Source of the DNA: Gammaproteobacteria bacterium | Lineage (GTDB): Bacteria > Pseudomonadota > Gammaproteobacteria > HK1 | NCBI GenBank assembly: GCA_965202875.1 | Contig: OZ241870.1 | Span: forward strand, 3,693,069-3,757,068 | Length of the DNA: 64,000 nt | Direction of reading: 5' to 3' | Shown here: positions 8,845-33,578 of the stretch, piece after piece | How the letters are laid out: every line of letters starts with the position of its first letter | Numbering within the stretch: position 1 is the first letter of the stretch | Made by a program: the position numbers and the translations under genes | The notes under the pieces: model-generated | Database searches by the model: none | What the model was told of the DNA's origin: nothing | The model's input: only the letters and a program-made list of their open reading frames with translations

Positions 8845-10068
8845 ATGCCGCCGATGATGGAAGAACTTCTGTTTTTCTTCGAGGTGCTGCTCGGCGGGTT
8901 GCTGACCGGCATCATGTACTCGCTGGTCGCGCTGGGCCTCGTGCTGATCTTCAAGGCGTCCCAGATCTTCAACTTCGCGCAGGGCGCCTTCGTGCTGTTC
9001 GCGGCCCTCACCTTCGTGCTGATGCTGGAGGTCGGGCCGGGCTTCTGGAGCTGGACCGGGTGGCTCGCGGTGGCCTTCGCGCTGCTCGCGGCGGGGATCT
9101 GGGGGCTGCGGCGGTACACCACCGTGCTCGACGCACCGAAGCGGTACGGCCGTACCCCGGTGGTGATCGCGGCGCTCGCCGTGGTGCTGCTGCCGGTCCT
9201 GTTCGACGGCGGCCAGCCGATGTGGCGGGCGATCTTCATCGTCGAGCTGACCTTCCTGATGCTCACCGTGGGGGCCCGTACCCCCAACTGGGCTGCCGGT
9301 GTCCTCCTCGGCCTCGCGGTAGCCTGCTTCTTCCTCGACGAGGCGATGCTGTGGCGCGCGCTCGCGCTGACCCTGCTGGTGATGATCATGATGGCCATCG
9401 CCATCGAGCGGATCGTGCTCCGCCCGCTCGTCAACCAGGAGCCCATCATCCTGTTCATGGCCGCGATCGGGTTGAACTTCGTCATCGAGGGGGTGGCGCA
9501 AGGGGTGTGGGACGCCGACGTGCACGCCCTCGACATCGGCATCCCCGACGTTCCCATCGCCTGGCTCAGGGAGAGCGTCGGCCTGTTCATCAGCGTTTTC
9601 GACGTGGTGGCGGCGGTGACCGCGGCGGCGCTGGTGGCCGCGCTGGCCTGGTTCTTCAACAAGACCCGGGTGGGGCGCGGGCTGCGCGCGGTGGCCGACG
9701 ACCACCAGGCGGCGCTCTCGGTCGGCATCCCGCTGAAGAACATCTGGGCCGTGGTGTGGTCGGCCTCGGCGATCGTCGCGCTGTTCGCGGGCCTGATGTG
9801 GGGGTCGAAGCTGGGGGTGCAGTTCTCGATCGCGCTGCTCGCGTTCAAGGCCCTGCCGGTGATCCTGATCGGGGGGTTCACCTCCATCCCCGGCGCGATC
9901 GTCGGCGGCCTGATCGTCGGGTCCACGGAGAAGCTCTTCGAGATCTACGTCGGGATCCCCTTCTTCGGCGGAGGGACCGAGAACTGGAGCCCGTACATGC
10001 TCGGGACGCTGTTCCTGCTGGTGCGCCCGCAGGGGCTGTTCGGGGAGAAGATCATCGAGCGCGTGTGA
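8845..10068 (+). CDS. branched-chain-type ABC transporter permease, LivH-like (enlarged, ~407 aa)
   Basis: Highly hydrophobic; N-terminal 'LLTGIMYSLVALGLVLIFKASQIFNFAQGAF' and C-terminal 'GIPFFGGGTENWSPYMLGTLFLLVRPQGLFG' match the LivH family. An extra ~100-aa hydrophobic insert is present. Confidence 0.8.
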   Translation: MPPMMEELLFFFEVLLGGLLTGIMYSLVALGLVLIFKASQIFNFAQGAFVLFAALTFVLMLEVGPGFWSWTGWLAVAFALLAAGIWGLRRYTTVLDAPKRYGRTPVVIAALAVVLLPVLFDGGQPMWRAIFIVELTFLMLTVGARTPNWAAGVLLGLAVACFFLDEAMLWRALALTLLVMIMMAIAIERIVLRPLVNQEPIILFMAAIGLNFVIEGVAQGVWDADVHALDIGIPDVPIAWLRESVGLFISVFDVVAAVTAAALVAALAWFFNKTRVGRGLRAVADDHQAALSVGIPLKNIWAVVWSASAIVALFAGLMWGSKLGVQFSIALLAFKALPVILIGGFTSIPGAIVGGLIVGSTEKLFEIYVGIPFFGGGTENWSPYMLGTLFLLVRPQGLFGEKIIERV

Positions 10069-12887: not shown

Positions 12888-13715
12888 ATGGACAGGGCCA
12901 TGGAGACCAACGGGACGCCCCTGCTGAGCGTCAACAACGTCGAGGTGATCTACGACCACGTGATCCTCGTGCTCAGGGGGGTGTCCCTCGAAGTGCCCGA
13001 GGGGGGTATCGTCACCCTCCTCGGGGCCAACGGCGCCGGGAAGTCGACGACGCTGAAGTCGATCTCGAACCTGCTCGGCGCCGAGCGGGGCGAGGTCACG
13101 AAAGGTTCGGTCACGTACCGGGACGAGCGCGTCGACGGACGCACCCCGGCCGATCTCGTGAAGATGGGCGTCGTCCAGGTCATGGAAGGCCGCCACTGCT
13201 TCGGCCACCTCACCGTCGAGGAGAACCTGCTCACCGGCGCGTATACACGCACCGACGGCAGGGGCGCGATCGAGCGCGACCTCGAAATGGTGTACGGCTA
13301 CTTCCCGCGCATCAAGGAGCGCCGCCGCGCGATGGCCGGCTACACCTCGGGCGGCGAGCAGCAGATGACCGCGCTCGGTCGCGCGCTGATGGCCAGGCCC
13401 TCGATGATCCTCCTCGACGAGCCGTCGATGGGCCTCGCACCGCAGCTCGTCGAGGAGATCTTCGAGATCGTGAAGAGGCTCAACGAGAACGAAGGCGTGA
13501 CCTTCCTCCTCGCCGAGCAGAACACCCACATGGCGCTGCGCTACGCCCGGTACGGCTACATTCTCGAGAACGGCCGCGTGGTGATGGACGGCGAAGCTCG
13601 CGCACTGGCCGACAACGAGGACGTCAAGGAGTTCTACCTCGGCACCAGCGGAGGCGGACGCAAGAGCTTCCGCGACACCAAGCACTACCGCCGCCGCAAA
13701 CGCTGGCTGGCGTAG
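12888..13715 (+). CDS. ABC transporter ATP-binding protein, LivF-like, with basic C-terminal tail
   Basis: Walker A 'GANGAGKST', signature 'YTSGGEQQMTALGRAL', Walker B 'ILLDEPSMGL'. C-terminal extension '...GTSGGGRKSFRDTKHYRRRKRWLA'. Confidence 0.85.
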   Translation: MDRAMETNGTPLLSVNNVEVIYDHVILVLRGVSLEVPEGGIVTLLGANGAGKSTTLKSISNLLGAERGEVTKGSVTYRDERVDGRTPADLVKMGVVQVMEGRHCFGHLTVEENLLTGAYTRTDGRGAIERDLEMVYGYFPRIKERRRAMAGYTSGGEQQMTALGRALMARPSMILLDEPSMGLAPQLVEEIFEIVKRLNENEGVTFLLAEQNTHMALRYARYGYILENGRVVMDGEARALADNEDVKEFYLGTSGGGRKSFRDTKHYRRRKRWLA

Positions 13716-13763
13716 AGGGCTGTTTCTCGGGAAGATGAACGAAGACGTTCACCAGAGGCTTCC

Positions 13764-14042
13764 ATGTTGAAAAATAAAACGGATGGACTTAAAGAAGAGA
13801 TCGGATTGTTGAAACTTGTATTTGGCTTGGTATTTTTGCCTTGGATTTCCCTATTGGGTTGGCTGGGAGGGCAAGTGGTGGAAGATCTTCCACAGAAGTT
13901 CGATTTGGAGGCGATACTGCGGAAATTGGAAGTGACGTCAGCGGATTCTCGGGTGGTGCTGGCGCTACTGGTATGGTCGGGTATGTCTATATTTCTACTG
14001 AGCTGCCTTCTGGAGATCAGGCGCAAAATTGACAAATTGTAA
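13764..14042 (+). CDS. hypothetical small membrane protein (92 aa, 2 predicted TM) inside AT-rich insert
   Basis: Lies in a ~45-50% GC segment within a ~70% GC region. ATG after AGAGG. Hydrophobic stretches 'LLKLVFGLVFLPWISLLGWLGG' and 'VVLALLVWSGMSIFLLSCLL'. Confidence 0.45.
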   Translation: MLKNKTDGLKEEIGLLKLVFGLVFLPWISLLGWLGGQVVEDLPQKFDLEAILRKLEVTSADSRVVLALLVWSGMSIFLLSCLLEIRRKIDKL

Positions 14043-14067
14043 ACCTTCGTTGACCGGGAGAGCCGTC

Positions 14068-14373
14068 ATGGAGACGTCAAGTGGGATGATTGCAGGGTCG
14101 ATTATAGTGCTGATTTTCGCCGCATTGCTGATCCCCATCAAGAAATCCAGGGGAATGTTGTCCTCGATTGCAGCACTGATTTTCGCCATGTTGTTTATAG
14201 CATTACTGGCCGTTGTCATGGTGCCTGGTGAAATAGTGGTTCCAACTATTGCAGCATCGATCTTTCTTGTAACACTCGTATTGATGCTGGTTATCGCATT
14301 ACAGCCATCGAAAGGCCTGTTTGCCAAGATAGCCCATTTCTTTCTGATCCGGAACTCCGGTTCTACGGGATGA
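14068..14373 (+). CDS. hypothetical small membrane protein (101 aa, ~3 predicted TM) inside AT-rich insert
   Basis: ATG 14068 preceded by GGGAGAG. Almost entirely hydrophobic ('IAGSIIVLIFAALLIPI', 'IAALIFAMLFIALLAVVMV', 'IFLVTLVLMLVIAL'). Same low-GC segment as the preceding ORF. Confidence 0.45.
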   Translation: METSSGMIAGSIIVLIFAALLIPIKKSRGMLSSIAALIFAMLFIALLAVVMVPGEIVVPTIAASIFLVTLVLMLVIALQPSKGLFAKIAHFFLIRNSGSTG

Positions 14374-14497
14374 ATATCCAGCATGACCCTTCATCCGCAG
14401 CCAGCTTGGTTACCCGCCCATTGGCGAGAATACCGAGCGAATCCGGCTCCTCGGGATGCTCCGGCCATCCGGATGTATTCCATCATACTCCGCGGAC

Positions 14498-27621: not shown

Positions 27622-28149
27622 TGAAGTGTCTCCTTCGTCATGCCCGTCGTCAGCGCCGCTTGTCGGCGTTGGTCGAAGGCCGATGGCCGGTGTTGCGGGC
27701 ATCGCCGTCAAGCGGCCCGGGGAGGCGTCCGCAGGCAGGAGGCCGGCACCGGACGCCGAATACCGCATCAAGAGGAAGGGTAGTCGAGTCCGATCCGTAT
27801 GAGAAGACTGACGTGATTCCGGGTCGGCCCCCTGCCGCCGGCCGCGGCTGGCCGCCGTGGCTGCAGCGGTTCCCGCCGGCGCTCCGGTGCTTGACGCGAC
27901 AGCGCGATACCGGGGCGGTTCCGGGGGATGGAGCGCCTGATCATCATCGCGTCGGATCTTTTCGAACGTCGCCATGCCTGGCGGGATTGCTGCCAAGGCG
28001 CAGGCGGCTTCCGGAGGAACTTCTCCGGCATCCTGCGCTGTCGTTCCCCCGCCTGCCGGCGGCGGCGTCGACCCCGTTCGGGACAAAGCGGGCCGTCCAC
28101 CCGCTGCCGATGCACGTGGCGCGCTTGATGCAGATCATCACGACGCGCC

Positions 28150-29238
28150 TCAATCCAGCAGCAGTACGGCCGCTTCCGCCGGCCAGCAGATCGTCTCGCG
28201 GTCCCCCATCTCGTAGGAGCGGTCCGAGGCGCTGCGGTGCTGCTCGACGTGGACGAGTACGCCTTCACCGACCTCGAAGACGTCCGTTTCGAGCGAGCCC
28301 AGGAACTCGGTCGCGACGTAGCTCCCCTCGACCCGGTTGGCCATGCCGGCGTGGATGCCGGTGTGCACCAGATCCGCGCGTACCGAGAAATGGGCGTGCC
28401 GCCCGATCTCGACGGCCCGGTCGTCGTCGTGGTGGGCGCGCACGTAGAACAGGCGCCCGGCGGACTCCACGAAGACGACGGAGCCGCTGCGCGACCGGAT
28501 GACGCCTTCGAAGACGTTGTTGTTGCCGATGAAGTCGGCGACGAAGCGGGTGCGCGGCGCTTCGTAGATCTCGCGCGACGTGCCGGTCTGCTGGATGACC
28601 GCGTCGCTCATCACGATCACCTTGTCGGCCATCGACATGGCCTCCTGCTGGGAGTGCGTGACCATGACGAAGGTGATGCCGAGCTCGCGCTGGATCTTCT
28701 TCAGCTCGACCATCATCTGCTGGCGCAGGCTGTAGTCGAGGGCGCCGAGGGGCTCGTCGAGCAGCAGCACCGTGGGCTTGCTGATCAGGGCGCGGGCGAG
28801 CGCAACGCGCTGCTGCTGGCCGCCGCTCAAGTCCCGCGGGTAGCGCTCGGCGAGCTCGTCGAGGCTGACCATCCGCAGCATCTCGCGCACCTGCCGGTCG
28901 CGCTCGCCGCGCTCGATCCCCTTGACCTTGAGGCTGAACTCGACGTTCTGGTGGACGGTGCGGTGGGGAAAGAGCGCGAAGCTCTGGAACATCATCGAGG
29001 TGTCGCGCTGCGACGGCGCCAGATCGGTGACGTCCTGGCCCGCGATGTAGATCTTGCCCTCGGTGACCTCTTCGAGGCCGCCGATCATCCGTAGCGTGGT
29101 GGTCTTGCCGCAGCCGCTCGGGCCGAGCATGGCGACGAACTCCCCGTGCTCGATCTCCGCGTTGAAGTCGATGACCGCGCGCACGCCGCCGTCGAAGGTC
29201 TTGTTGACGTCGACCAGGACGACGTCGGGATCAGGCAC
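28150..29238 (-). CDS. ABC transporter ATP-binding protein (PotA-like, with C-terminal TOBE domain)
   Basis: Walker A 'GPSGCGKTT', signature 'LSGGQQQRVALARAL', Walker B 'LLLDEP'. No cognate permease genes are adjacent. Confidence 0.85.
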   Translation of the reverse strand: MPDPDVVLVDVNKTFDGGVRAVIDFNAEIEHGEFVAMLGPSGCGKTTTLRMIGGLEEVTEGKIYIAGQDVTDLAPSQRDTSMMFQSFALFPHRTVHQNVEFSLKVKGIERGERDRQVREMLRMVSLDELAERYPRDLSGGQQQRVALARALISKPTVLLLDEPLGALDYSLRQQMMVELKKIQRELGITFVMVTHSQQEAMSMADKVIVMSDAVIQQTGTSREIYEAPRTRFVADFIGNNNVFEGVIRSRSGSVVFVESAGRLFYVRAHHDDDRAVEIGRHAHFSVRADLVHTGIHAGMANRVEGSYVATEFLGSLETDVFEVGEGVLVHVEQHRSASDRSYEMGDRETICWPAEAAVLLLD

Positions 29239-29366
29239 CGTCCGGCGTCCTCAGCCGCGGGCCGCCGGACGACATGGATCGGACTTCTGCCATGCACCCA
29301 TCGCTATGCCGCCTCTGTCGTATTTCTCGATCAACCGGTAGACCTTTGCGAGTTCCTTCGCGTGGT

Positions 29367-30176
29367 TCACGTAGCCGGATCTGGTTGTGGCTGTTGTAAC
29401 CAGACGATCGGCTCCCGATTGTTTCTCTCCAGGTATTCGTTGGCGCAAGAGAAATGGCTGGTTCCCTTGATTCCAGCCCCATAGCTCGGGTGCTGTGCAC
29501 ATAAGACCTTATGGCGGCTGCGGTCGATATGTACGATCTTCTTCATCGCATGGGCTCCCCACAACATGAAGACAACGTGCCCGGGATCACGGCAGTTTAT
29601 TGCTTTGACGATTTTGGTCGTGAAACGCTTCCAGGCTCTCCCTGCGTATCCCTCGATGTGTGCGTTGCGTGGGCGTTCTCCATCAGGCTGGTCTGCTACT
29701 TGTCGAAATGTCAACACCGTGTTCAGCAGGAGCACACCCTGATCAGCCCAGGGCCTCAGGCAAACGTGGCTGCCAGGTAGCCTATCCTGAAATCGATCAC
29801 TTCCTCCCGGCGCACAGTCTTCGTTGACTTCGCGAATGATGTTCTTTAGCGAATCGTTGTGACTCCGGTGTTGGGCGTAAGTTTCCTGCATGGAGAAGGC
29901 CAAGCCATCCGCTTGGCCCTGGTTAGGATAGGGTTCTTGGCCCAATATGACGACCTTTACGTCCTCCAACCGCGTACGGTACAAGGCTTCGAAAATAAGA
30001 TCCGCAGGCGGAAGAATCGCATATCCATCTTCTTCGCATTGAAGGATATTGCGTAGAGAGCGCATGAGTCGCCACCTGACTGTCCTCCGGAGGATCGGCA
30101 ACCAATCACTATCCGCGAAACGTTGCTCGATATGGCCCGGGGTCAATACATCGCCCATTTGTAATCCGTTCGGCAT
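29367..30176 (-). CDS. uracil-DNA glycosylase, family 1 (UNG)-like, divergent active-site motif; located in low-GC islet
   Basis: Collinear with UNG: 'DVKVVILGQEPYPNQGQADGLAFS' (canonical GQDPYH replaced by GQEPYP), 'WADQGVLLLNTVLTFR', 'VFMLWGAHAMKK', 'RHKVLCAQHPS'. ATG 30176 with GGAG SD; the longer TTG-initiated ORF to 30287 is less likely. Local GC ~52% versus ~70% in flanking genes. Confidence 0.75.
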   Translation of the reverse strand: MPNGLQMGDVLTPGHIEQRFADSDWLPILRRTVRWRLMRSLRNILQCEEDGYAILPPADLIFEALYRTRLEDVKVVILGQEPYPNQGQADGLAFSMQETYAQHRSHNDSLKNIIREVNEDCAPGGSDRFQDRLPGSHVCLRPWADQGVLLLNTVLTFRQVADQPDGERPRNAHIEGYAGRAWKRFTTKIVKAINCRDPGHVVFMLWGAHAMKKIVHIDRSRHKVLCAQHPSYGAGIKGTSHFSCANEYLERNNREPIVWLQQPQPDPAT

Positions 30177-30283
30177 AACAAACTCCGTCTGGTTCTTCGT
30201 GATCAGTGTTGTGTCCCGCCGGTTTCCAGGCAGTCGGCCCCCGGTGCGCGGCTCAACGTTGGCGGTCGGATGGCGGTGGTCGG

Positions 30284-30541
30284 TCAATCCCGATTGGACG
30301 TCCGCTTTGCGTCAAGCTCATTTCGGGAGCGAAGCAGCCTGGCCTGTACCGATTCCAGCAAGGTGTCGCGCACGAACGTGCTCGCTTCGAGTATCTCGAT
30401 GCCGATGATCTCTCCCTTGCGGTTGAGCTCCGCCGTAATGTTGGGACTCAGCTCTGCGCTACCCGCCTCCTCCTCCTCGTCGTTGATCACGAGGTGCAGC
30501 ACATCCTCCCGCTCGAAGTAATGCAGCCGCGGTCTTGTCAT
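30284..30541 (-). CDS. DUF2283 domain protein
   Basis: 85 aa 'MTRPRLHYFEREDVLHLVIND...NRKGEIIGIEILEAS' matches the DUF2283 pattern (YD.E.D.L.I...G.I.GIEIL.AS). Lies in the same lower-GC islet as the UDG. Confidence 0.7.
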   Translation of the reverse strand: MTRPRLHYFEREDVLHLVINDEEEEAGSAELSPNITAELNRKGEIIGIEILEASTFVRDTLLESVQARLLRSRNELDAKRTSNRD

Positions 30542-30595
30542 GGCGGTGTGTACCTGCCCGTTCGCAACCGAAAGTTGATCTGTCTCCGTCCGCCC

Positions 30596-33406
30596 TCACT
30601 TCGAGGACTTCGCCAGCGCCTGCAAAAGATTCCACGCGGTGGCGAAGGGCACGTCGTCGAAGGTCCCGCCCTCGTTCACCGAGCCCAGCACCGCGAGGGC
30701 GCGGGTCGCCTCCTCGTCGCCGCCCGCCGCCTCCCCGAGCCGTTCGAGCGCCGCCGCGAAGGGGGTGTCCAGGGCGTCGCCGAGATGGGCGTCCACCAGG
30801 CCCGCGATCCGCTCCACGTGGCCGCTCAGGGGGCCGCCGTCCGGGCGGCGGAAGATCCCGCGGATGCCGTCGCGGGCCAGACGGTCCCGCAGCCCCTCGG
30901 GCAGGGACTGGGCCACGCCTTCCAGCGCCTCCCCGATCCCGAACCCCGACGTGAAGAGCTGGCGGATGTTGTCCACGGTGCCGCCGTCGCCGCCGTACAT
31001 CCGGATGTGGGCGCCGGTCAGGGCGCTGCCCATGGCCTTGGCCTGGTCGATGTGGACGTCGCGCTCGGCCTCGATGTGCAGCTTGGCGAGCTCCAGGAAG
31101 GTCGCGGACTCGTTGTACTTCTTGAGGGCGTCGGCCTTGGCCTCGATCCCCACCGCCTCGGCCTGGAAGCGGCGCTGGACGTTCTCCACGCGCAACGCCT
31201 CGACGTGCACCTCCGCCCGCCCCACCGCGCCGGCTTCCCGCTCGATGCCCTCCGCCGAGATCTGCTGGGCCTCGCTGGTGGCGCGGGCGCGGGTGAGGGT
31301 GGCTTCGGCCTCCCGCTCCGCCGCCAGGCTGCGCGCCTCGGCCTGGGTGAGCATGTGCATGCGCGAGATCTGGGCCTTGTTCTCCTCCTCGATCCGGCGG
31401 GTGTCGGCGTCCTTCTCGGCCCGGATGCGGTCGATCTCCTTCTGGCGGGTGGCGTCCGCGACGCGGCGCACGGACTCCGCGTCATGCTCCGCCTGCTCGC
31501 GCCGTGCGGTCATCTCCAGGCGGTGGGCCTCCGCCTGCTCCAGCTCGCGGGTCTTCGCGGCCAGGGCGATCTGGCGGTCCCGCTCCTCCTGCTCGCGGGC
31601 AAGGAAGCGCTGGATGTCCGTCCGCTCCCGCTCCTGCTCCTTGGCGATGAGGGCGATCTCGCGCTCGCGCTCCTCGACCTCCACCGCCAGCGCCTTCTTC
31701 ACCCGGGTCCGCTCGACCTCCTCGTCCTTGCCGGTGAGGGCGATCTCGCGCCCGCGCTCCTCGACCTCCACCGCGAGGCGCCGTTGCACCTCGGCCTGCT
31801 CCAGCTCGCCGGCCTTCGCGACCAGGGCGATGTCGCGGTCCCGCTCCTCGGTCTCGCGCGCCAGCCCGCGCCGGATCTCGGCCGCCTCGCGTTCGCGGGT
31901 CTCCTCGATGATCGCGACGTCCTTCCGGAGCCGCGCCGCCTCCAGGGCCTGGGCCTTGGCGATCTCCTCCTGCTCGACCTGCCAGCGCTGCTCCAGGATG
32001 AAGCGCTGCTGCTCGCTCAGCACCCGGGCCCGCTCGTTGGCCACCTCCCGCTCCTGCTGCGCCTGGGCGAACGCCTCGTCCTTGTCGATCTCCAGCATCG
32101 CGAGGCGGGTTTCCAGGCTGCGCCGGCGGACCGAGAGCGCGGTCGCCTCGGAGGATTGGTGCCGCTCGTCGCGGGCCACCTCCTCCCGCCCCATCACCGC
32201 GGTGGTGCGGTCGATGTCCGCCGTCTCCCGCGCCTGCTCCTTGGCGATGAGTTCGATCTCCTTGTCCTTCTCGGCCCGCTCGCGGGCGAGGGCGCGGCCG
32301 ATCCCGGCCAGCTCCTCCTCCTCCGCCTTGGCCACCAGGGCGATGCGGCGGTCGTGCTCCGCGCGCTCCTCGGAGAGCTTGCGCCGGATGTTGGCGAGTT
32401 GCTCCTCCTCGGTCTTCGCGACCAGCTCGATCTCCCGGTCCCGGCGTGCCTTCTCCAGCTCCAGGGTCTTGCGGATCTCCGCCGCCTCGCGGCGCCGGCT
32501 CTCCTCGGTGGCGCTCACGTCGCGCTCCGCCCTCATGCGTTCGAGCGCCTGCTCGTTGTCGATCTCCTTCTGCTCCACCGCCATGCGCTGGTCGAGCACG
32601 TACCTCTGCTTGTTGCCGATCTGCTGGGCCTGCTCGTTGGCGACCTCCCGATCCTGGTGGGCGCGCGCGAACGCCTCCTGCTTCTCGATCTCCAGCAGCT
32701 CGAGCTGGGTGTCGAGCTCGCGCTGTCGGATGGAGACGGTGGTGCGCTTCTCGGTGTTGTGCACTTGGCGCCGCGCGTCGGAGGTGATCTCGGTGATGAC
32801 CTTCAGGCCCTCGGCGTCGAACACGTTGTCCTTGTCGAAGAACTCCTTGGCGCTCTGCTCCAGGGTGACGATGGTGACTTCTTCGAGCGTGAGGCCGTTG
32901 GCGTGGAAGCTCTCGACCACGCTCCCCTGCACCGCCTTGGCGAAGGCGTCGCGGTTCTCGTGGAGCTCGCTCAGGGTCTTGGTGGCCGCGAAGCTGCGCA
33001 GCGCGCTGACGATCTTGGCTTCGAGGAGGTTGCGGACCTTCTCGGTGTCGAAGGTGCGCTCGCCGAGGCTGCGCGCGGCGGCCAGCAGGTCCTCTTCGCT
33101 CCGGCCGACGTGGGCGTAGAGCTCCGCCACCACGTCGATCCGGATCTTGTCGGAGGTGAGCACCGCCTGATCGCGCGAGCGGCTGACGATGAGCTTCAGG
33201 GTCTCCAGCGAGACCCAGGTGACCTCGTGGAACACCGGCAGGACGATCGCGCCGCGGCCCAGGCAGACCTTGGTGCCGAGGTAGCCGGTGCGGATGAACC
33301 CCATGTTGGCGGGCGCCCGCTTGTAGACCCAGATCGAGATGACGTAGAGGATCGCGATCAGGACGATCACGAGGAAGAGGAGGGTAATCAGGAGTTCCGC
33401 GGTCAT
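30596..33406 (-). CDS. flotillin-like SPFH/band-7 protein (YqiK/FloA family) with greatly expanded coiled-coil repeat region
   Basis: N-terminal TM plus SPFH domain ('GFIRTGYLGTKVCLGRGAIVLPVFHEVTWVSLETLKL', 'AEGLKVITEITSDARR'), then ~500 aa of E/R/A-rich heptad repeats with reiterated 'REIALVAK/REIALIAKEQERE' modules. 936 aa in total. Confidence 0.8.
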   Translation of the reverse strand: MTAELLITLLFLVIVLIAILYVISIWVYKRAPANMGFIRTGYLGTKVCLGRGAIVLPVFHEVTWVSLETLKLIVSRSRDQAVLTSDKIRIDVVAELYAHVGRSEEDLLAAARSLGERTFDTEKVRNLLEAKIVSALRSFAATKTLSELHENRDAFAKAVQGSVVESFHANGLTLEEVTIVTLEQSAKEFFDKDNVFDAEGLKVITEITSDARRQVHNTEKRTTVSIRQRELDTQLELLEIEKQEAFARAHQDREVANEQAQQIGNKQRYVLDQRMAVEQKEIDNEQALERMRAERDVSATEESRRREAAEIRKTLELEKARRDREIELVAKTEEEQLANIRRKLSEERAEHDRRIALVAKAEEEELAGIGRALARERAEKDKEIELIAKEQARETADIDRTTAVMGREEVARDERHQSSEATALSVRRRSLETRLAMLEIDKDEAFAQAQQEREVANERARVLSEQQRFILEQRWQVEQEEIAKAQALEAARLRKDVAIIEETREREAAEIRRGLARETEERDRDIALVAKAGELEQAEVQRRLAVEVEERGREIALTGKDEEVERTRVKKALAVEVEEREREIALIAKEQERERTDIQRFLAREQEERDRQIALAAKTRELEQAEAHRLEMTARREQAEHDAESVRRVADATRQKEIDRIRAEKDADTRRIEEENKAQISRMHMLTQAEARSLAAEREAEATLTRARATSEAQQISAEGIEREAGAVGRAEVHVEALRVENVQRRFQAEAVGIEAKADALKKYNESATFLELAKLHIEAERDVHIDQAKAMGSALTGAHIRMYGGDGGTVDNIRQLFTSGFGIGEALEGVAQSLPEGLRDRLARDGIRGIFRRPDGGPLSGHVERIAGLVDAHLGDALDTPFAAALERLGEAAGGDEEATRALAVLGSVNEGGTFDDVPFATAWNLLQALAKSSK

Positions 33407-33578
33407 GGTCGGTCCGTTCCCGTCTGGTGTGTCCGTTCAGTGAGCCGGAGCGTCCCGGCTCCGCTCGCACGTTCCCCGGTCTCGAAGCATCGAAGCAGAC
33501 CCCGATCCGACATGGCCGGAGCCAAGGGTCGAGCAGGAATGAACAAGCCTTTCCTGGGAGCGGCGCGTCCTGACGGAC

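Follow-up and report, generated by a model that had tools for sequence, protein, structure and literature searches.

The subject of this study is a divergent family-1 uracil-DNA glycosylase (UDG) gene in a 64,000-nucleotide (nt) stretch of gammaproteobacterial DNA, referred to here as the window, where it lies with a small DUF2283 gene between the genes for a Band_7/SPFH flotillin-like protein and an ATP-binding cassette (ABC) ATPase. Comparison with related loci at the level of sequence has shown the UDG gene to be a hypervariable, recombining locus fixed in a conserved block. UNG, the family-1 enzyme, is normally among the most conserved DNA-repair enzymes. On balance, it is probable that the gene encodes an active, lineage-restricted putative UNG paralogue whose polymorphism is maintained by recombination and balancing selection, possibly where it meets phage-encoded UNG inhibitors. 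The enzyme family is a known one; what is new is a family-1 UNG that lacks the Leu loop and persists as old, mosaic alleles at one fixed site in the chromosome.

The ten UDG alleles analysed share 64–82% amino acid identity (synonymous divergence, dS, 0.3–0.55) and lie between flanks that are 97–99% identical (dS 0.04), UDG differing by 20–35% between strains that are otherwise ~98% identical. The related loci fetched as DNA are designated L001–L007 and L089–L094, and the allele and locus of the window WIN. Between WIN and L002, L003 or L004, the Band_7 protein is 99.3–99.8% identical (dS 0.04), the ABC ATPase 98.6–99.2% (dS 0.06) and DUF2283 95%, and UDG is 74.5% identical (nonsynonymous divergence, dN, 0.14; dS 0.29). 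The same pattern is seen between L001 and L006, with 99.5% identity for Band_7 (dS 0.035), 99.4% for the ABC ATPase (dS 0.07), 98.8% for DUF2283 and 70% for UDG (dS 0.46). The baseline nucleotide identity between these strains is 97–98% over 12–15 kb, and in sliding comparisons identity falls from 97–100% to 65–90% and returns to 98–100% at the UDG segment only, the divergent segment being bounded at ~30300–29415 for WIN and L004 and at ~30205–29215 for L001 and L006.

The alleles are mosaics, the nearest allele switching segment by segment among the ten. The four-gamete test is failed by 46% of informative site pairs, and a statistic of the pairwise homoplasy index (PHI) type lies below all 500 permutations. 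One allele, P0005, is nucleotide-identical (dS 0) in L002, L003 and L004, where the flanks differ by dS 0.03–0.07 and the outer neighbours differ. Four alleles were each recovered from at least two independent assemblies, so assembly error is not the cause of the divergence, and distinct alleles coexist in the same samples (L001 and L006 in ERZ26050812; L002 and L089 in ERZ25070167). Neither partial UDG copies nor silent cassettes were found within the 64-kb window or in eight related loci of 7–21 kb each. Selection for diversity is suggested here by the excess of synonymous and nonsynonymous divergence and by the genealogy rather than by a site test. Because this excess is confined to one gene, the genealogies are decoupled from those of the flanks and alleles coexist in samples, it is likely that old allele diversity is kept by balancing or diversifying selection together with allele exchange.

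The variation is distributed very unevenly along the protein. The open reading frame (ORF) is intact in all ten alleles, and the proportion of synonymous differences (pS) is high along the whole gene (0.25–0.5). In crude sliding windows of 15 codons, the ratio of nonsynonymous to synonymous proportions (pN/pS) drops to 0.02 (pS 0.30) in the codon window that begins at W143 (alignment columns 146–160, WADQGVLLLNTVLTF), which covers WADQGVLLLN, and to 0.14 over VKVVILGQ(D/E)PYP; entropy is 0 over residues 146–156. The motifs GLAFS, LLLN, LWG and HPS are all present in the window protein, in which Gln80, Tyr83, the stacking Phe94 (of GLAFS), Asn152 (of LLLN) and His229 (of HPS) are kept, with Y83, F94 and N152 invariant in the clade and across 59 aligned UNGs. 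By this codon-level measure, the uracil pocket and the catalytic residues (Gln, Asp/Glu, Tyr, Phe, Asn and His) are shown to be under strong purifying selection. Since pN/pS collapses at the active site while pS stays high, the protein appears to be functional, with a UNG-type pocket, and most likely still flips and excises uracil.

Positions with at least four residue states cluster elsewhere, namely in the equivalent of loop II, a second insertion, Gly-Ser residues 208–209 and loop V residues 232–233, and also in the helix of residues 26–50 and at the C-terminus. In loop II, the Pro-rich loop, Pro-Pro is replaced by a variable loop ~4 residues longer, and a second further insertion of ~12 residues follows the LLLN strand. 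In the Gly-Ser loop, the Ser varies. Loop V, the Leu-intercalation loop, is 3 residues shorter (HPSPLSAHRGF becoming HPS-YGAGIKG) and has no conserved protruding Leu or Phe; its catalytic His is invariant, the positions that follow HPS are variable (Y/K/N/- and G/Q/K/E/-) and residues 232–233 are hypervariable. The window protein also carries an N-terminal extension of ~20 residues. The three loops that pinch the DNA backbone are thus remodelled, and the surface contacting DNA and inhibitors is, by the alignment, both altered and variable.

To our knowledge, the Pro-rich, Gly-Ser and Leu-intercalation loops are gripped by all known protein inhibitors of UNG, and Ugi, p56 and SAUGI are thought to be effective as DNA mimics that grip residues UNG cannot afford to change. 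The elements contacted by UNG inhibitors are those removed or randomised in the clade studied here. On UNG, p56 and Ugi make their contacts at loop V and the Pro-rich loop (PMC3711442). According to PMC10303552, which describes complexes of the Ugi/SAUGI and p56 folds, these folds sequester the intercalating Leu or Phe of UNG, and Ung itself restricts replicating viral DNA. The most plausible driver of allele diversity would therefore be an interface at which UDG meets proteins from phages or other mobile DNA, UNG inhibitors for instance; its own role would be restriction-like, directed at replicating DNA that contains uracil or is single-stranded. A stronger form of this proposal, which we regard as tentative, is that the UNG paralogue is a polymorphic immune-type locus that has shed the inhibitor-gripped Leu and whose old recombining alleles, with Asp and with Glu, are under frequency-dependent selection from phage or plasmid proteins. 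If true, uracil excision would join the list of arms-race interfaces, and this would be the first family-1 uracil-DNA glycosylase evolving as an arms-race restriction factor rather than as a housekeeping repair enzyme. The presence of at least ten old mosaic alleles in nearly identical strains resembles what is seen at immune or surface-antigen loci, and a clade that has changed its inhibitor-gripped residues under a constrained pocket bears on the ability of family-1 UNGs to evade mimicry by inhibitors and on the catalytic price of doing so.

Several observations weigh against the proposal of an active paralogue under balancing selection. No 15-codon window has a convincing pN/pS above 1, the top values of 1.41 and 1.29 coming from tiny windows and not being regarded as significant. 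Human and Bacillus subtilis UNG lose nearly all activity without the intercalating residue (PMC3711442), and as this residue is gone from the window protein, the enzyme may be weak on duplex DNA or act on single-stranded DNA (ssDNA) only. All of the relatives are metagenome assemblies, and neither an inhibitor gene nor a uracil-DNA phage is linked to this host. In PADLOC, UDG, DUF2283 and Band_7 have no match, although the library used (2023) predates the publication of the defence glycosylase Brig1 and may not include it; the ABC ATPase matches to PADLOC models (mad3 and others) were dismissed as generic P-loop similarity.

The water-activating motif of the window protein reads GQEPYP where canonical UNG has GQDPYH, the carboxylate being kept. 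Both changes, Asp to Glu and His to Pro, had been reported in the initial annotation of this DNA and are real. The suggestion made there that Glu may alter catalysis or substrate range is not borne out, as five of the ten alleles have GQEPYP and the other five GQDPYP, and the two forms occur in strains with ~99% identical flanking genes (Glu in WIN and Asp in L004; Glu in L001 and Asp in L006). Since alleles of a single species carry either Asp or Glu, Glu81 is, on the alignment, a tolerated within-species polymorphism and neither a fixed catalytic novelty nor a clade-defining switch. GQEPY is rare outside the clade. Nor is the Pro a notable departure: GQDPYP occurs in 25 of ~270 UNG-family proteins retrieved and in 24 of 158 UNG genes from viral or metagenomic loci, most of its carriers having a normal HPSPLS loop, and by these counts His to Pro is an ordinary change found in ~10–15% of otherwise canonical UNGs. 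The insertion of ~20 residues described previously measures ~7–9 residues at that site. The earlier motif reading was right for the water-activating motif, and overlooked the two most unusual features, namely that the Leu loop is shortened and that the gene is hypervariable. The water-activating residue is usually studied by mutagenesis only, and the natural alternation of Asp and Glu offers a ready-made variant pair at this position. Another setting with Glu for the catalytic Asp is found in two proteins with tandem UNG domains, P0139 and P0140, in which the second domain has degenerate motifs (GAEPVS or GQEPPC, HPA...); P0139 has an N-terminal extension in addition.

The assignment to family 1 and the collinearity with UNG over the whole fold, proposed from the motifs alone in the initial annotation, are supported. 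The window protein matches the Pfam UDG family PF03167 (1.4e-11; score 45.1 against a cut-off of 24.3) and the NCBIfam ung models at about 1e-51; one of these, NF003592, is above its cut-off (175.4 against 162) and four of the five fall below theirs, TIGR00628 (163.4 against 185.75) among them. The nearest solved structure by sequence is Escherichia coli UNG (1e-36, 38–40% identity over the full length), followed by other bacterial UNGs. An AlphaFold model built on an alignment of 59 sequences has a predicted local distance difference test (pLDDT) score of 90 and a predicted TM-score (pTM) of 0.90, and its top Foldseek matches are all UNGs, with TM-scores to the target of 0.88–0.90 for the E. 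coli and B. subtilis enzymes (E ~1e-20).

The clade is narrowly distributed. A collection of 5.8e9 clustered proteins contains, besides the cluster of the window protein itself, only ~10 clusters (at 90% identity) that are 64–80% identical to it, and the next matches are ordinary UNGs at 42% identity; a library of 1.84e9 representatives (50% identity) has the entire clade as a single entry (543 bits), with the next match at 261 bits. No clade member was found among GTDB species representatives, which returned only ordinary UNGs (at most 43% identical), or in IMG/VR, where the best viral matches are 32–42% identical and no closer than cellular UNGs. A scan of JGI metagenomes with a broader short-loop alignment led by the distant protein P0141 gave, among the matches listed, 80 loci, all of them canonical UNGs with 40–50% identity to P0141. 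By these searches, the UDG gene is shown to be a lineage-restricted offshoot of family-1 UNG. The host is an uncultured gammaproteobacterium; as for its lineage, the MmsA protein encoded in the window is 84–88% identical to proteins of Thiotrichales and Ectothiorhodospiraceae metagenome-assembled genomes (MAGs) and of Thioalkalivibrio sp. HK1.

Comparison with characterised glycosylases places the window protein close to canonical UNG, with which it shares the fold, the Gln-Asp/Glu-Pro-Tyr loop, the stacking Phe, the LLLN Asn and the HPS His. It differs in that Glu and Asp alternate in its clade, Pro stands for His and loop V is short and without Leu or Phe, as well as in its longer variable loop II, variable Gly-Ser Ser, two further insertions, N-terminal extension and within-species hypervariability. 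Poxvirus D4 is a family-1-type protein with the motif GIDPYP and a loop V without Leu, yet it is an active UDG; by analogy, a Pro-ending motif and a Leu-less loop V may be compatible with activity. D4, however, has Asp rather than Glu at the water-activating position and serves as a polymerase processivity subunit, and no specific relationship to it is detectable: it is not among the structure-database sequence matches of the window protein, whose nearest solved relatives are bacterial UNGs. The unconventional UNG of Nitratifractor salsuginis (PDB 5x3g/5x3h), a family-1 enzyme with non-canonical motifs that is reportedly insensitive to Ugi, is a weak match (E 4.7e-6) but not of the same subclade, scoring 29 bits against 130 bits for ordinary UNGs. 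A functional analogy for the proposed restriction-like role may be offered by Brig1 and Brig2, UDG-superfamily glycosylases repurposed for anti-phage defence, homologues of Brig2 favouring A/T-rich regions (PMC11078745; bioRxiv 10.1101/2025.10.29.685425). Brig1 is family-4-like with a pocket enlarged for glucosyl-hydroxymethylcytosine (glucosyl-hmC), whereas the window protein belongs to family 1 and its uracil pocket is intact and invariant; its gene lies in neither an integron nor a mobile island.

The layout of the locus in the window is as follows.

28144–33476, no strand assigned: 5.3-kb four-gene block of Band_7, DUF2283, UDG and ABC ATPase (from megablast and gene maps)
28150–29238, minus strand: ABC_tran+TOBE_2 ATPase, 362 residues, with no adjoining permease; conserved flank at one end of the block
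29239–29366, minus strand: spacer from the UDG stop to the ABC ATPase start; inside the divergent segment in some allele pairs (L001/L006)
29367–30176, minus strand: coding sequence of the divergent family-1 UDG, 269 residues, allele P0001; start ATG at 30176 (MPNGL...)
29463–29492, minus strand: loop V, HPSYGAGIKG, residues 229–238, from alignment with UNGs
29721–29741, minus strand: uracil-recognition strand QGVLLLN, residues 146–152, invariant in all ten alleles
29925–29942, minus strand: water-activating motif GQEPYP, residues 79–84; Glu encoded by GAA at codon 81 (Asp in canonical UNG)
30177–30283, minus strand: 107-nt non-coding spacer between the DUF2283 and UDG genes
30284–30541, minus strand: DUF2283 (YuzE-like) coding sequence, 85 residues, PF10049 match
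30542–30595, minus strand: 54-nt deletion scar with the last ~12 codons of a lost upstream ORF that is intact in L001 and L006
30596–33406, minus strand: Band_7/SPFH flotillin-like protein, 936 residues; conserved flank on the other side

P0001 denotes both the window UDG protein and a database entry of exactly the same sequence. A longer UDG ORF (29367–30287, minus strand, 306 residues) with a TTG start at 30287, overlapping the DUF2283 stop, was considered and rejected, as spacer indels break its frame; MPN(G/E)L is the start in most alleles. The 107-nt spacer is taken to be non-coding because indels between relatives are not multiples of three. Its divergence depends on the pair compared (78% identity for WIN and L004; 95–99% for L001 and L006). 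Searches for Rfam families and for sigma-70-like promoters found none, and a single terminator-like site was at chance level.

The base composition of the two central genes sets them apart. The GC content is 0.54 for UDG (0.59 at third codon positions, GC3) and 0.59 for DUF2283 (GC3 0.76), against 0.69 for the whole window and 0.67–0.71 (GC3 0.89–0.97) for flanking genes, which bears out the previous description of a low-GC islet formed by this pair. In 200-nt windows, GC is 0.525–0.58 over 29300–30300, 0.60–0.635 over 30200–30700 and 0.67–0.79 in the flanks. Only 34 of 1256 sliding 1.2-kb windows have GC below 0.60, and these are confined to two places, the UDG locus and ~13–14.5 kb. The UDG gene has a GC content of 0.51–0.55 in all related loci fetched, and singleton substitutions among its alleles run from GC to AT in 75 cases and from AT to GC in 38; therefore, the gene is not moving towards host composition. 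Low GC would appear to be a stable property of the locus, not the mark of recent import. The second low-GC stretch of the window, ~13700–14400, has its minimum of 0.549 in the 1.2-kb segment that starts at 13351. Its neighbours are genes for an ABC ATPase and a PaaK-like ligase, and the only ORFs in it are small hydrophobic ones of 92 and 114 residues.

In every relative fetched, UDG is adjoined on the same strand by DUF2283, the ABC ATPase gene or both, and the eight longer loci show the order Band_7, DUF2283, UDG, ABC ATPase, or as much of it as the contig holds. By megablast, the four-gene block (28144–33476) is the only part of the window common to the related loci, and the genes beyond it differ. 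The spot it occupies is prone to rearrangement. In the window, SBP_bac_5 and MmsA lie beyond one end of the block and ORFs with no annotation beyond the other, while the relatives have hydantoinase A/B upstream and amidase, nuo genes, sulfite reductase and transposases downstream, together with many genes of toxin-antitoxin (TA) or defence type (AbiEii, PemK, PIN, ParE-like, Fic, MZB helicase and AAA_15).

These observations bear on the proposal, made in the initial annotation, that the pair is a recently acquired, possibly phage-derived accessory islet whose UDG has altered catalysis or substrate range through the Asp to Glu change. The contrast in GC3 between UDG and its flanks would fit such an origin, as would the match of the protein to a PHROG family of unknown function (3e-37) and the similar low-GC, single-gene islet in which a distant relative, P0143, is found in another lineage (0.53 against 0.64). 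However, the pair, its position and its low GC are the same in all 14 related loci recovered, across flanks diverged up to dS 0.3, which is the finding that the initial annotation itself had named as speaking against import; there is no presence/absence polymorphism of the pair among them, and recent substitutions do not run towards host GC. Hallmarks of a mobile element are lacking, with no tRNA gene in the 64 kb, no integrase between Band_7 and the ABC ATPase gene and only short, chance-level repeats flanking the islet. No clade member occurs in IMG/VR, the best viral match (42%) being like those of ordinary UNGs, and Asp and Glu are polymorphic within the species. We therefore consider recent import very unlikely. 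What stands from the initial annotation is the identity of the UDG, its residue changes and the lack of a DUF4258 partner; recent import, phage origin and a catalytic switch are largely unsupported. A different origin of the diversity, programmed local hypermutation by a diversity-generating retroelement, cassette conversion or deaminase-driven mutagenesis, would explain why divergence is so sharply confined to one gene, and the transition/transversion ratio is higher in UDG (1.73) than in the Band_7 and ABC flanks (0.93–1.29). It is nonetheless scarcely credible, as no reverse transcriptase, template repeat or silent cassette is present within ±10 kb of the eight loci or in the 64-kb window, the variation extends over the whole 800 nt instead of a short variable repeat, and identical alleles are stable over three independent assemblies. 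The main rival to an active paralogue under balancing selection is decay under relaxed constraint, in which a redundant UNG paralogue drifts while AT-biased mutation lowers GC and weak codon selection inflates dS. This accounts for the AT bias of singleton changes and for the raised whole-gene dN/dS of UDG (0.3–0.5 against 0.03–0.18 in the Band_7 and ABC flanks), and it is in keeping with the degraded DNA-binding loops and with the alternation of Asp and Glu at a residue regarded as essential. Yet full-length ORFs are kept in ten alleles, active-site segments retain a pN/pS of 0.02–0.14 despite a pS of 0.3, and the dS of UDG exceeds that of the flanks 7–10-fold, more than relaxed codon selection could produce by itself; an identical allele in diverged backgrounds and the mosaic structure indicate exchange and not simple clock-like drift. 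Decay is thus an unlikely explanation, though the least so of those set against the favoured one. If relaxed drift alone were at work, the locus would still be a clear case of an old, locus-intrinsic low-GC 'islet' in a high-GC genome, with no recent transfer.

The constant proximity of DUF2283 raises the further alternative of a two-gene TA-like or defence module, in which UDG would be a DNA-damaging effector restrained by an acidic, DNA-mimic-like DUF2283 protein. In every locus the two genes are neighbours that share a strand and keep their order, DUF2283 was absent from the surroundings of canonical UNGs in 243 control loci, and variable TA and defence genes lie near the block in relatives; P0141, a distant short-loop protein, has a C-terminal tail and its gene overlaps a ParE-like toxin gene. 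The DUF2283 protein has 85 residues and a pI of 4.9, and Ugi is similar to it in size and charge. Against this, DUF2283 shows no co-variation with the hypervariable UDG, being 87–99% identical among loci and evolving like the flanks. Its close homologues, the 'YuzE'/DUF2283 proteins of Nitrospinota, Methylomirabilota and the FCB group (60–70% full-length identity, up to 76% locally), extend across phyla where the UDG clade does not exist. The spacer of 107 nt before the UDG gene is not conserved, and in L001 and L006 DUF2283 has its own overlapping upstream ORF. The DUF2283 model (pLDDT 90; a five-stranded sheet and a long C-terminal helix) has no significant match in the PDB to Ugi, SAUGI, p56 or any other structure (best E 0.23), and its sequence matches no solved structure; a Ugi-like mimic was accordingly rejected, there being no PDB match at E <0.2. 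Nor does the module have a PADLOC match, and with the uracil-specific pocket kept, normal bases should not be attacked. A module of this kind is improbable, and as co-variation is lacking and the DUF2283 subfamily is widely and independently distributed, DUF2283 is probably not functionally tied to UDG.

DUF2283/YuzE proteins (COG5428) are small predicted antitoxins of DUF4258-type toxins, and the window gene is a typical example of full length, its PF10049 match (1.6e-11) extending over 48 of the 49 positions of the profile. It differs from known DUF2283/DUF4258 pairs in having no toxin partner: as stated in the initial annotation, it lacks DUF4258, and no other toxin gene accompanies it in the window, where only the 54-nt spacer lies before Band_7. 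In L001 and L006, ~385 extra nt between Band_7 and DUF2283 (9204–9642 in L001, and the same in L006) hold an ORF of 113 residues that overlaps the DUF2283 ATG by 4 nt. The sole family signal of this ORF is a non-significant BrnT_toxin match (E 0.1), and it is not DUF4258. The window keeps its last ~12 codons (30542–30595) and L005 ~196 nt. The ORF has the look of a toxin partner deleted step by step, and DUF2283 in the window looks, from these remnants, like an orphan, the surviving half of a TA-like pair. In L002 and L003 (both 9631–9852) and in L005 (9638–9859), the DUF2283 frame shifts near residue 70 and the tail is replaced by a short '...RSRR' end; the C-terminal helix tail, which lies outside the Pfam domain, can evidently vary or be dispensed with. 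The study PMC4755241, in which FseA/QseM is labelled 'DUF2283', was not used, as DUF2285 is the usual name of that family.

A few more distant proteins (P0141, P0143, P0168 and P0156) have the 'LTxx(H/Y)F' extension at the N-terminus and the shortening of loop V in common with the window protein. The genomic context was seen for two of them, P0141 and P0143, which is too few to generalise. P0141 (L095, 272–1467) is a UNG-like protein with GQDPYH, HPRIGLED and a C-terminal tail of ~55 residues, encoded on a single 1.7-kb contig; the stop of its gene overlaps the start of the ParE_like toxin gene (PF24732, 9e-14), and it therefore stands in the position usually held by an antitoxin. P0143 (L256, 8001–8708), from the other lineage mentioned above, is also short-looped and UNG-like, with GQDPYY and HPTQGLSD; its solitary gene has intergenic regions of 450–580 nt on both sides and metabolic genes beyond.

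On the other side of the locus, the Band_7 protein contains internal direct repeats of ~600 nt (~68% identity) that encode a Glu/Arg/Ala-rich coiled-coil region, seen as off-diagonal BLAST matches when related loci are compared (Band_7 genes, e.g., at L002 7437–8566 and L001 7054–8183). L005 encodes a version of this protein that is 29 residues longer.

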